Source: an uncultured Deferribacteres bacterium
Lineage (GTDB): Bacteria; Zhuqueibacterota; Zhuqueibacteria; Zhuqueibacterales; Geothermadaptataceae
NCBI GenBank assembly: GCA_964014485.1
Contig: CAXHAT010000243.1
Location: 1-10,337 of the forward strand
Length of the DNA: 10,337 nt
Direction of reading: 5' to 3'
Shown here: in pieces, positions 722 to 9,856 of the stretch
Layout: each line of letters opens with the position of its first letter
How positions within the stretch are numbered: position 1 is the first letter of the stretch
The notes under the pieces: model-generated
What the model saw: only the letters and a program-made list of their open reading frames with translations
Databases searched by the model: none
What the model was told of the DNA's origin: nothing
Program-made: the position numbers and the translations under genes

Positions 722-802
722 ATGTTTAGCAAATCGATCCACCGCAAACCCTTCAAGAAAATTGGCGAAGGCGATGTGTGCGTCGTCTATGAAGTCTGTG
801 AC
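722..802 (+). pseudogene. Degenerate Ser/Thr kinase N-terminal stub (head copy 1)
   Basis: Translates MFSKSI-HRKPFKKIGEGDVCVVYEVCD versus kinase MIGETILHYKILEKLGEGGMGVVYKAHD. By manual alignment 44/63 nt are identical from the His codon to the Asp codon. Similarity stops after that Asp. Confidence 0.7.
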
Positions 803-899
803 GAATCATCCAAAGTTGCCAGGATTCACGCGACTGAAAAGTACGACAACTGCGATTTTGATTGCAAAAATTTGATGCAAGTTGGGCGTCTGCCAAACA

Positions 900-7064: not shown

Positions 7065-9716
7065 ATGATCGGCGAAACAATTCTCCACTACAAAATCCTC
7101 GAAAAACTCGGCGAAGGCGGCATGGGCGTGGTCTACAAAGCCCATGACACAAAGCTCGACCGCGACGTCGCGATCAAATTCCTGCCCAAACGCATCGCGT
7201 CAAACGCCGATGAGCGTCAACGCTTTGAAATCGAAGCCAAAGCCGCCGCCGCACTCAACCATCCCAACATTGCCACGATTCACAACATCGAAGAGCACGA
7301 TGACGAAATGTTTATCGTGATGGAATACATCGGCGGGCAGGAATTAGGTGACATTGTAGGGGTTCAAAATCTTGAACCCCTACCCATCAAAACGATTGTC
7401 GATTATGCCACCCAAATCGCATCCGCCTTGCAAGCGGCGCATGAAAAGGGCGTTGTGCATCGCGACATTAAATCCGCCAACATCATGGTCACGGAAAAAG
7501 GCCAGGTTCACCCCGTTGGACATATATCCTACGGGGTCAAAATTATGGACTTTGGCTTGGCGAAATTGGCGGGTTCGGACGTCCGATTGACGAAGGAACA
7601 TACGACGCTTGGAACTGTAGCCTACATGTCGCCGGAGCAGGCGCGCGGGGAAGAAATCGATCATCGCACGGATATTTGGGCGTTTGGGGTGGTGCTTTAT
7701 GAAATGCTGACGGGTCAATTGCCCTTTGACGGCGATTACGAGCAAGCGGTGATTTATTCGATTTTGAACGAAGAGCCAACGCCGGTTTCCGAATTGCGCG
7801 ATGACGTTTCGCCAGAGCTTGAATCCATTGTCGCGAAAGCATTGGCGAAAGACACAGACGCGCGTTATCAGCACGTGGACGAGATGCGCGTGGATTTGCA
7901 GGCTGTGCAAAACAGCCACAGCAAAACGCAAGCGGGAACACCAAACACACAAACTTCACGCAAAAAAACAGGCGTGCTTGCCGGCGCTTTCGCCGTCGTT
8001 GTGCTTTTGGCTGTGGCCGCGGCCGTGTATTTCACAAAAGATGATTCGGCGCCGCTGGTCGGCATTGAGCGCAAGATGCTGGTGGTGCTGCCGTTCGAAA
8101 ATCTCGGCGCGCCGGAAGACGCGTATTTTGCCGATGAACTGACGAACGAAATCACCAATCGACTGAGCCATTTGTCCGGTCTGGACGTTATTTCGGGAAA
8201 CACCGCCAGAAGATTCAAGGGGACGGACAAATCAAACAATGAAATCGGCAAGGAACTCGGCGTCGACTTCATTTTGACGGGGAAAGTCAATTGGCGGCGA
8301 GCGGCTGAATTGACCGGCGATGTCCGCATCACGCCTCAGCTTATTCGCGTCATCGATGACACGCAAGTTTGGACTGAGCCGTTTCAGCAGAAAATCGACA
8401 AGATATTTGAGATTCAAACAAATATTGCAGAGGAGGTGGCCAAAAAACTGGATATTGAAATCTTGTTGCCGGAACGAGAAAACTTCCAGCGAAGGCCGAC
8501 AAACAATCTGGCGGCTTATGATCTCTATTTGCAAGGGACATCTTTATCCAATCAATCATTCTCGCGCGCCGAATCTGAAGGATACAGCCTGGCTATCCCG
8601 CTATTCGAACAAGCGATTGCGTTAGACCCTCATTTCGTCCTTGCTTTTGTTGCACTATCGTGGTCCCATCAGCAAATTTATGTCCTGGGAGTTGATCGCT
8701 CGGATAAAAGGTTGGCGGCGGCGGAAGCAGCGGCAACTGAGGCTTTGCGACTACAGCCGGACTCGCCTGACGCTCATCGTGCGCTGGGGAACTACTACTA
8801 CAACTGTATACAGGATTTTGCCAGTGCACTGAAGGCTTTCGACAATCTGCGGAAACTTTTACCAAACATATCACCTGCTTTACGTGCCCTTTCTCTACGG
8901 CGCATGGGTGAGTGGCGCGAAGCTTTGGAAGAATACAAACGCGGTTTTGCACTCTCCCCTCGAGAAGCCTGGATTCCCTTTGGTATTGCAAGCTCGTATA
9001 TGCGGCTTCGCCGGTTTGCCGAAGCGGAAAAATGGTATAACCAGTCTCTGACCGTCGATCCGTCTTTTCAGGCGGCAAGAAATTACAAAGCACGGAATCA
9101 TCTTTGGTGGAAGGGAGACGTGGAAGGAGCGGAAGCGATTCTCGCACCTGCTCCGAAGAATCAACCTCTGTATAATAGTTGGCACTGGTTGAATCAAGCT
9201 GACGCCGACCATTCAAGAGTTTTGGATCGCCTCGCCCAAATCGAAAGCGACGTCATCATTCATCAATCCCGCCATATACCAAAAAGCCTTGCTTATGCAA
9301 CCGCTCATTACATGGCAAGAGAGCCTGAAAAAATCACCTCTCTCGCGGATTCAGCGCGGGTAAAATTAGAGGCCGAAATCCGTAAACAACCGAGTGACTC
9401 CCGATTGTATTCCTCGCTTGGGCTTGCCTACGCTTTCCTTGGCAGTAAGGAAGATGCGATACAAACGGCCAAGCGCGCGGTAGAGATTACGCCCGTCTCC
9501 AAAGATGCGTTGACTGGCCCGGTCTACGTTTTGAGTTTGGCGGAGGTTTATGCCGTTGTCGGCGAGCACGATCTCGCCATTGACCAACTGGAATACCTGC
9601 TCACCATCCCAAGCGAAATGTCCGCTTCCTGGCTGCGCTTCGACCGTTTCTGGCACGCATTGCGCGAGCATCCGCGCTTTCAAAAGTTGATTGCAGACGG
9701 GGATAAACCGCTATGA
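7065..9716 (+). CDS. Hanks-type Ser/Thr protein kinase with TM helix, TolB-N-like domain and TPR repeats
   Basis: GEGGMG, VAIK, HRDIKSAN, DFG, GTVAYMSPEQ and DIWAFG are intact. Hydrophobic GVLAGAFAVVVLLAVAAAVYF; LVVLPFENL..YFADELTNEI TolB-N-like segment; TPR-like repeats (FEQAIALDPHFVLAF, YKRGFALSPR). ATG 7065 (MIGE) preferred over TTG 7053. Confidence 0.93.
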   Translation: MIGETILHYKILEKLGEGGMGVVYKAHDTKLDRDVAIKFLPKRIASNADERQRFEIEAKAAAALNHPNIATIHNIEEHDDEMFIVMEYIGGQELGDIVGVQNLEPLPIKTIVDYATQIASALQAAHEKGVVHRDIKSANIMVTEKGQVHPVGHISYGVKIMDFGLAKLAGSDVRLTKEHTTLGTVAYMSPEQARGEEIDHRTDIWAFGVVLYEMLTGQLPFDGDYEQAVIYSILNEEPTPVSELRDDVSPELESIVAKALAKDTDARYQHVDEMRVDLQAVQNSHSKTQAGTPNTQTSRKKTGVLAGAFAVVVLLAVAAAVYFTKDDSAPLVGIERKMLVVLPFENLGAPEDAYFADELTNEITNRLSHLSGLDVISGNTARRFKGTDKSNNEIGKELGVDFILTGKVNWRRAAELTGDVRITPQLIRVIDDTQVWTEPFQQKIDKIFEIQTNIAEEVAKKLDIEILLPERENFQRRPTNNLAAYDLYLQGTSLSNQSFSRAESEGYSLAIPLFEQAIALDPHFVLAFVALSWSHQQIYVLGVDRSDKRLAAAEAAATEALRLQPDSPDAHRALGNYYYNCIQDFASALKAFDNLRKLLPNISPALRALSLRRMGEWREALEEYKRGFALSPREAWIPFGIASSYMRLRRFAEAEKWYNQSLTVDPSFQAARNYKARNHLWWKGDVEGAEAILAPAPKNQPLYNSWHWLNQADADHSRVLDRLAQIESDVIIHQSRHIPKSLAYATAHYMAREPEKITSLADSARVKLEAEIRKQPSDSRLYSSLGLAYAFLGSKEDAIQTAKRAVEITPVSKDALTGPVYVLSLAEVYAVVGEHDLAIDQLEYLLTIPSEMSASWLRFDRFWHALREHPRFQKLIADGDKPL
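7356..7383. repeat. GTAG-type REP palindrome inside the kinase ORF
   Basis: Perfect 12-bp stem GTAGGGGTTCAA-AATC-TTGAACCCCTAC, read in frame as VGVQNLEPL. Confidence 0.85.
7507..7540. repeat. 30-nt in-frame palindromic insert just before the kinase DFG strand
   Basis: ACCCCGT-T-GGA-CATATA-TCC-T-ACGGGGT hairpin. It adds HPVGHISYGV between GQV and KIMDFG. Removing 7508-7537 restores GGC CAG GTC AAA (GQVK). Confidence 0.85.
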
Positions 9717-9856
9717 TCGGCGAAAGAGTCACACACGACAAAATCCACGAAAAGCTCCTTTCGACAGAGTTCAGGACAGACGGCGAAAGCGTCGTCTACA
9801 AAGCCCGCGACATGACCAGATTCTTGTCTGGAAACTATTTTGAAATAAGCGAATGA
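9713..9856 (+). pseudogene. Truncated Ser/Thr kinase N-terminal stub (head copy 4), 47 aa, translationally coupled to the full kinase
   Basis: MIGERVTHDKIHEKL[LSTEFRTD]GESVVYKARDMTRFLSGNYFEISE*. The ATG overlaps the kinase TGA (ATGA, 9713-9716). Similarity stops after YKARD. Confidence 0.88.

Follow-up and report, generated by a model that had tools for sequence, protein, structure and literature searches.

Bacterial pseudogenes erode by deletion and tandem paralogues undergo birth-and-death; integrative elements such as SXT/R391, in the 5' end of prfC, and e14, in icd, replace the end of the gene that they enter; and the orphan modules of polymorphic toxins (Rhs, CdiA) keep a variable 3' end together with an immunity gene and can be swapped in. 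As a locus to be set beside these systems, we consider here a window of 10,337 bases, the entire contig C243 of an 8.4-Mb metagenome bin with 465 contigs (genome G000), in which a full serine/threonine kinase gene is accompanied by three short copies of its own start, called stubs below, and by two toxin-antitoxin (TA) pairs with PIN-type toxins. Chromosomal islets made of TA genes only, without mobile genes, also bear on this locus: in the part of PMC13617665 that concerns them, they are described as spreading by recombination in flanking genes, and its discussion has it that such islets can integrate by homologous recombination at flanking core genes.

The stubs of the window are most likely scars of ordinary genome decay, and not parts of a machine. 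The explanation that we favour, with a probability of roughly 60%, is that they are eroded dead members of a kinase array, which was invaded by the two PIN TA pairs, a miniature inverted-repeat transposable element (MITE), a repeat resembling repetitive extragenic palindromes (REP) and an insertion sequence (IS).

Truncated kinase starts in the window

The sequence-only reading of this DNA had placed four co-oriented kinase starts ("heads") on the + strand, and all four were recovered, both by a repeat finder, as the top three direct-repeat families of the window, and by a DNA profile that covers the opening 96 nt of 13 of the genome's kinases and was run with nhmmer over all 8.4 Mb. The full gene and the stubs, each with its open reading frame (ORF), are the following:

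722..803 (match 731-803), + strand: head stub 1, profile positions 10-85, E 1.1e-3, within the orphan ORF 668/722-916
6205..6297 (match 6217-6270), + strand: head stub 2, a 30-codon ORF, profile positions 4-57, E 6.8e-5, ending after GEGG
7065..9716, + strand: serine/threonine kinase, full, with a membrane segment and a tetratricopeptide-repeat (TPR) sensor part (PF00069, E 1.5e-55, plus TPR families); head 7065-7160
9713..9856 (match 9713-9814), + strand: head stub 3, a 47-codon ORF, profile positions 1-87, E 7.6e-5, G-loop broken

The first repeat family (45 nt, three copies) takes 7065-7109 as its reference and includes 6214-6258 (69%) and 9713-9757 (80%), the second (35 nt, three copies) joins 769-803 (69%) and 9778-9812 (77%) to 7115-7149, and the third aligns 738-802 with 7084-7148 over 65 nt, ungapped, in frame and at 71%. 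As the E-values of the profile are genome-wide, the stub matches are more than chance. A genome-wide search at the protein level found two of the stubs weakly (E 0.13 and 1.1) and did not recover the third.

The break points and the position of the heads at gene borders also turned out as first read. Kinase similarity stops near the Asp of YKAxD in stubs 1 and 3 (profile positions 85 and 87) and after GEGG in stub 2 (position 57). Stub 1, the most decayed kinase start of the window, has its ORF start at 722, 69 nt past the stop of vapC. Stub 2, identical to the full head at 41/53 positions and possibly followed by a weak likeness to the next kinase codons (6271-6290, by eye only), flanks with the full start at 7065 a PIN_3 toxin gene and its antitoxin gene (6305-6995). 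Stub 3 is identical to the full head at 64/86 positions, and its ATG overlaps the stop of the kinase (ATGA, 9713-9716). The 30-100 nt behind each stub, and the interval 5881-6204, have no other copy in the genome.

All three stubs are open ORFs with an ATG, of 64, 30 and 47 codons. The ORF 668-916 around stub 1 was tried as a conserved small protein and rejected, since a search among 5.8 billion proteins found no homologue but the ORF itself. The full gene scores 188.9 bits with the Pkinase family, whose cut-off is 31.7, over profile positions 1-253 of 263; by contrast, nothing beyond the first beta strands and the G-loop is matched in the stubs, which have no Pfam match. Using a model of the full kinase against the 425 six-frame pieces of the window, we found the full gene and the three stubs at the top, and no internal or 3' kinase piece. 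The idea that the window stubs are head-plus-tail fusions was likewise rejected: a profile made from the C-terminal tails of 14 kinases recovered the full kinase's own tail but matched none of the three stub ORFs, and tail resemblances noticed by eye were accordingly dropped. An Rfam scan of the window gave four weak sub-threshold matches, none of them at the stubs.

Contigs of the Logan collection, from three runs of one study at about 5x, bridge 680-985, 5969-6330, 6522-7118 and 9379-9959, and thereby cover every stub junction. No head-to-head joint is listed in the Logan contigs of these three runs, which at a depth of about 5x weighs neither way.

Kinase arrays and their remnants

Pkinase is matched 29 times in this genome, three times in fragments and 26 times in frames that stay open for at least 348 aa, and 13 of its kinases share the start of the window kinase, the conserved form of which is MIGxTIxHYKIxEKLGxGGMGVVYKAxD. 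The same start is found in kinases of metagenome-assembled genomes (MAGs) labelled Ignavibacteria, Calditrichaceae, Acidobacteriota and others; all relatives compared here are MAGs. The family numbers 14-75 copies in relatives of the same order and class, with tandem arrays in three of them (G025, G015 and G010); two kinases stand in tandem on contig C103 of this genome, and a contig from estuary sediment (L038) carries at least six, each next head beginning on the previous stop. Adjacent full heads are mostly spaced 2248-3255 nt apart, and the 2648 nt that separate the full head at 7065 from stub 3 at 9713 fall within this range, at the usual array period. In the metagenome collection, identities to the full kinase do not exceed 48%, and those to its sensor part do not exceed 44% in 40 relatives.

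The identity between a stub and the next full head has a median of 0.80 (n=10, range 0.69-0.95), and that between adjacent full heads, a class that includes two stubs misassigned by the labelling rule, a median of 0.78 (n=21, range 0.64-0.91); within the window, 6217 and 7065 are 0.77 identical and 7065 and 9713 are 0.74 identical. The stubs being as diverged as array neighbours, they look like old array members and not like fresh copies. Among identical residues of paralogues, the proportion that share their codon is 0.49 for the head (620/1267), against 0.38-0.49 across the eight remaining bins of the domain; the head shows no excess, and therefore no gene conversion or homogenisation by recombination specific to it. 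Head and body of the live kinase are both closest to the same paralogue, on C103, with 28/30 identical residues in the head (20/26 of these sharing codons) and 179/227 in the remainder of the kinase domain (109/173 sharing codons), so that the present start looks native, although on so short a sequence this test is weak.

To count remnants across this genome we used nine 32-codon DNA profiles of the kinase domain, with hits counted outside full kinases at E<0.01:

Codons 1-32: 6 hits (contigs C358, C361 and C130, and the three window stubs)
Codons 33-64: 3 hits
Codons 65-96: 2 hits
Codons 97-160: 0 hits
Codons 161-224: 1 hit (contig C39)
Codons 225-288: 0 hits

Six remnants thus bear a head, three of them on C243, against one that is internal only, and the earlier expectation that internal remnants would not be as common as heads was borne out. 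Later kinase segments were recovered in 13-25 full genes, compared with 20 for the head, and residue identity is 0.58 in the head and up to 0.61 elsewhere in the domain; as later segments are equally detectable and conserved, the 5' bias of the remnants is real.

Outside the window, the head on C358 (4455-4689) runs to about residue 80-89, where another high-copy IS, lying at the contig end, interrupts it. A kinase on C361 lacks its first 75 residues, also at a contig end, and C358 and C361 may hold one gene split by the IS. The stub on C361 sets in at a full kinase's stop, changes frame after YKAR and reaches to about residue 55, where it abuts a convergent Zincin gene, with an IS200-type transposase nearby; that on C130 ends at about residue 98 against a convergent gene. 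None of the remnants on C358, C361 and C130 lies beside a TA gene, and a cross-check of lists showed that the genome has 43 PIN-type places and that, apart from those on C243, none is within 5 kb of a kinase.

Using the 36-residue head as a query in five related genomes, and calling a frame short when below 250 aa, we obtained the following counts, which hold among the matches listed, all but 13 rows, and in which some short frames are frame-broken full genes (the counts of G025 and G031 include frame breaks and contig ends):

G025: at least 18 of 61 head matches in short frames
G031: 25 of 60 in short frames, many at contig ends
G010: 2 of 16 in short frames
G015: 1 of 12 in short frames
G014: 1 of 14 in short frames

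Fourteen loci were fetched because they had short-frame heads, and are for that reason unusable for the 5' bias. Truncated heads in the fetched loci stop anywhere from codon 12 to about codon 100, with several breaks after nt 57-62 (a window stub, L041, L048, L053 and L037) and several after codons 24-29, and the stubs often carry stops or frameshifts. Three internal-only fragments were seen in relatives (L037:17398, L041:8437 and L048:3716). Relatives also show a decay series, with head and tail retained and the middle deleted (L044, L038), a tail only (L042:2151-2354), a head joined to residue ~207 (L046) or to residue ~65 (L037), a head joined to a PD40 C-terminus (L042), and hairpin inserts within heads (L036, L037). 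Outside this lineage stubs are rare: 71 loci of other phyla (1.14 Mb) gave 104 full kinases, two N-terminal stubs, one partial gene and, locus edges aside, no headless fragment.

In G025 some stubs stand in rows with other genes. One row (L041) comprises a stub of codons 1-80, a Bro-N gene, a stub of codons 1-20, a RhuM gene and a kinase, all co-oriented, with junctions that are an ATGA overlap, 2 nt and 39 nt. Another (L042) runs from a kinase tail remnant through a stub of codons 1-86, an AAA_14/DUF4143 ATPase gene, a stub of codons 1-29 and two ORFs of unknown kind to a stub of codons 1-12 joined to the PD40 C-terminus, a stub of codons 7-90, a PIN_3 and DUF6364 TA pair on the other strand and a kinase; this TA pair is placed as in the window, with a toxin 27% identical to the window PIN_3 toxin and a different gene order. 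The heads in these rows are 0.92-0.95 identical, slightly above the array background of that genome (0.86-0.91). Two further G025 arrays have a PIN pair and an AbiEii-like gene between full kinases. RhuM was rejected as a head-linked cassette: a kinase start is near its homologues in one of 24 loci, the locus of the query itself, and in the other 23, one with a 93% identical homologue among them, no kinase segment lies within 1.5 kb (the count excludes three further loci from unpublished genomes).

Some further observations were made on these loci. In L037 (G025:C153:31000-50900) a unit of kinase, stub and spacer is tandemly triplicated; its three kinases are nearly identical and share their C-terminus, and the head stubs behind them differ in length (96, 20 and 86 codons). 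Three genomes carry the same insert of about 45 nt in a kinase head, where it separates codon 20 from codon 21 (L042:2414-2458, L047:2578-2622 and L084:4624-4669); it ends in a short palindrome, and all three host heads belong to broken genes. The notion that it is a multi-copy repeat was rejected, as G025 and G014 have one copy each and G000 has none. In two genera (L048:2614-2670, - strand, and L053:2335-2423, + strand) a head is cut after nt 57 and followed by a hairpin-bearing linker of about 30 nt, similar in the two, and then by a second head; in L053 the stop of the stub ORF lies 1 nt ahead of the next ATG.

Weighing the origin of the stubs

The stubs, the mobile elements and the decay series found in relatives are observed, as are the size of the family and its habit of forming arrays with ATGA overlaps; we infer an ancestral array in the window and the order of events. 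In redundant co-oriented arrays with a period of about 2.4-2.9 kb, where the next ATG is often on the previous stop, members would die often, struck by IS, MITE or REP insertions or by TA pairs and other selfish gene islets. Deletions would then strip the gene bodies, the ends that abut neighbours would last longest and the start would be the easiest part to recognise. What is left in the window may accordingly be pictured as coming from an array K(6217)-K(7065, alive)-K(9713), in which the body of the first member would have been replaced by the opposite-strand PIN_3 TA islet and the third would have been lost beside the IS, its first codons remaining by their overlap with the stop of the live gene; the stub at 722 would be an older remnant beside the vapBC pair. 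Tails persist as well as heads in the relatives, which would fit erosion towards both borders, with heads merely easier to see. Were this so, redundant signalling arrays would be tolerated landing pads for TA islets and transposable elements, and the window a clear example of dead genes shrinking to their borders. For annotation, short ORFs resembling kinase starts should not be called genes.

Several observations weigh against erosion of an array. Starts are retained far more often than internal parts of the kinase domain, despite equal conservation and detectability, and no kinase tail or body remnant is detectable after any window stub. The stubs at 722 and 6217 have no live abutting upstream gene, so that a protected border does not explain their survival, and many break points in the fetched loci fall within codons 12-29. 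Rows in which stub, cargo, stub, cargo and kinase succeed each other with tight junctions (G025 contigs C138 and C274, heads 92-95% alike) are awkward for pure decay, and PIN genes of G025 are enriched near heads, 3/52 lying within 500 nt where about 0.4 would be expected (Poisson P ~0.007).

The sequence-only reading had gone further and proposed that the head may be a recombination anchor, through which kinases and TA modules would be exchanged. The 5' bias, the G025 rows and the PIN enrichment agree with this idea, but the mechanism fared badly in five tests: codon sharing in the head does not exceed that elsewhere; stubs are as diverged from the next head as array neighbours are from one another; no other kinase or remnant of this genome has a PIN gene within 5 kb; of 24 loci with RhuM homologues, the query's own is the one near a kinase start; and the PIN_3 toxins of the same layout are dissimilar, with break points widely spread. 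The anchor reading is mostly not supported.

A narrower form of it, which we put forward tentatively and hold to be improbable, is that DNA entered the first 20-90 codons of a kinase gene, which survived by means of a second copy of its start behind the insert, the old start being left as the upstream stub. The second copy would either arrive with the insert or result from single-crossover (Campbell-type) homologous recombination with a circle that bears both cargo and a head fragment, the head being a homology anchor for general recombination with no dedicated enzyme; the incoming DNA would be the PIN_3 TA pair here and a hairpin repeat, Bro-N, RhuM or an ATPase elsewhere. Such displacement would account for the short spacers, devoid of kinase body, between a stub and the next full head (848 nt in the window, 88 in L053, 293 in L050, 628 in L084, 1043 with the TA pair of L042, and 1115 and 1135 with RhuM and Bro-N in L041), for the hairpin linker after nt 57 and the second head shared by L048 and L053, and for the presence of 5' fragments alone, which is expected if the kinase must stay intact. 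It is at odds with the stubs being no nearer the next head than array neighbours are to one another, with the lack of excess synonymous identity in the heads, with the common closest paralogue of head and body in the window kinase, with the RhuM count and with the unrelatedness of the TA pairs. Moreover, head-plus-tail and tail-only remnants show that plain internal deletion occurs, and the 9713 stub is downstream of a live gene, not upstream. Because of the L048 and L053 linkers and the 45-nt insert at the same codon in three genomes, a process of this kind may exist in the group, and 6217/TA/7065 could be a large case of it. More doubtful is the general proposal that the G-loop-coding start may be a preferred landing or breakage site, at which inserts survive when a second start is brought or regenerated, leaving rows of displaced starts: homology-anchored cassettes free of any recombinase, with a paralogous family as docking sites. 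If start displacement did occur, accessory genes would have, in a gene start common to dozens of paralogues, a portable docking site that needs no dedicated recombinase, and this would be a new route of gene gain in Ignavibacteria/Calditrichia-like bacteria.

Other origins for the stubs have much lower probabilities. That they are kept as functional short leader ORFs or 5' leaders, coupling translation or giving promoters, is unlikely: all three window stubs are open with an ATG, the 9713 ORF is ATGA-coupled to the kinase, the L053 stub closes just ahead of the next ATG and stub and cargo ORFs overlap by ATGA in L041, but the window stubs are followed by convergent genes or the IS, with no gene to lead, the ORF 668-916 is without homologue, stubs of relatives are often interrupted and no Rfam family matches. 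Very unlikely in our judgement is a dedicated site-specific, integron-like cassette system, with the G-loop-coding sequence of the head as attachment site and a recombinase encoded elsewhere. Breaks do recur after nt 57-62, and the same 45-nt insert is found at one position in L042, L047 and L084; this insert is nevertheless single-copy per genome, break points occur anywhere between codon 12 and ~100, cargo genes point either way, by eye no common sequence follows the break points, and no recombinase was found in the window or among the 14 ORFs scanned in L041 and L042. An artefact, by chimeric assembly of a repeat-rich metagenome bin or by chance similarity, is hardly credible: the bin is in 465 contigs and both ends of this one are in repeats, but the E-values are genome-wide, separate Logan contigs bridge every stub junction and the stub flanks are unique in the genome.

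Other features of the window and comparison with described systems

A Pfam scan over the 13 ORFs of the window, with the repeat search over the whole genome, gave the remaining features:

1..54, no strand: IS right end; the contig begins within the IS, and the same 54-55 nt end contigs C275 and C306 and are internal in C18
16..270, + strand: vapB antitoxin ORF of ribbon-helix-helix (RHH) type (ORF call, RHH assignment by eye), overlapping the vapC start
261..653, + strand: VapC-type PIN toxin (PF01850, E 3.7e-17)
900..3884, - strand: receiver/PPDK_N-type ATP-grasp protein (PF01326, E 1.1e-40)
4019..5380, - strand: glutamate dehydrogenase (GDH; PF00208, E 3e-84, plus PF02812)
5657..5880, no strand: palindromic MITE-like dispersed repeat of ~220 nt (inverted repeats I6, I9), of which other contigs carry many copies, 79-95% identical
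6305..6568, - strand: putative antitoxin, small and RHH/HicB-like (PF05534, E 0.0021, under cut-off), downstream of the PIN_3 gene
6558..6995, - strand: PIN_3 toxin (PF13470, E 5.6e-17)
7354..7383, no strand: REP-like palindrome of 30 nt, with exact 29-30-nt copies on dozens of contigs
9903..10337, + strand: IS left end and DDE transposase start (transposase 9977-10336; PF13701, E 4.7e-8), cut by the contig end

No recombinase other than the IS transposase was found by Pfam among the 13 ORFs, as had been noted at first sight. In both TA pairs a PIN toxin gene is adjacent to, and overlapped by, a small partner gene, and both would qualify as candidate type II TA pairs. The vapB-like ORF has no Pfam match at E 0.01, and its 5' part runs out of the IS end; copies of that IS end on C306 and C18 are also found just upstream of TA-like genes, a PIN pair (C306) and a DUF433-like ORF (C18, by eye). 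A paralogue of the antitoxin at 6305-6568 adjoins a PIN_3 gene on C70.

The first 54 nt and the last 435 nt of the contig are the ends of one IS, and a segment of 9.85 kb is thus bracketed by two copies of it. Its termini are complementary at 19/20 positions (35-54 with 9903-9922); similarity among copies of the right end stops after position 54, where the flanks on C275, C306 and C18 differ, and 9903-9957 matches the ends of C145 and C238. Among the Logan contigs, two of X1 exit the window at position 54 and one links the window end to the window start. The MITE-like repeat lies between the GDH promoter region and stub 2, and the REP-like palindrome is in frame within the kinase ORF, to which it adds about 10 residues, at a Logan depth of 78 compared with ~5. 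Orthologues of the receiver/PPDK_N protein, 67-78% identical, adjoin GDH in 5/9 family genomes with varying flanks; when 11 window proteins were queried in these five genomes, the PPDK_N protein and GDH alone matched.

Full-text literature searches listed no paper on start remnants of bacterial serine/threonine kinases, or on rows of them, and the window may be compared with described systems as follows. Integron arrays resemble the L041 and L042 rows in having short single-gene units, often TA, in a row separated by repeated sequence. They differ in that neither the 13 window ORFs nor the 14 ORFs of L041 and L042 include IntI or any integrase family, in that the repeat here is a coding gene start, and in that the cargo lies in both orientations; as to attC sites, Rfam matched nothing at cassette borders (E up to 1) and no shared post-break sequence was seen by eye, no dedicated attC model having been run. 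With gene-end-replacing elements, the inserted DNA likewise has a displaced gene fragment on one side and the gene, intact, on the other, a layout that 6217/TA/7065 shows too. The window, however, is without an integrase or a fixed core site, break points running from codon 12 to ~100; the replacing end is not foreign here, as head and domain remainder share their closest paralogue at like identity (a short sequence and a weak test); the inserts measure 0.03-1.2 kb; and the divergence of the stub is that of a paralogue. The orphan modules of polymorphic toxins are, like the stubs, gene fragments that share a conserved segment with an adjacent full gene, but the window stubs retain the invariant 5' end alone, and there is therefore nothing to swap in.

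With the chromosomal TA islets, as presented in the part of PMC13617665 concerned, the window shares two compact PIN-type TA pairs between other genes and the lack of an integrase; its flanks are paralogous kinase starts and not single-copy core genes, and one flank is a stub. From pseudogene erosion and birth-and-death the locus departs in that remnants of the window and its relatives are strongly 5'-biased and often stand in rows with foreign genes between them; it agrees with them in that redundant members die and shrink, and in that the remnants make up a decay series, with varied lengths, frameshifts, internal deletions and inserted mobile elements.

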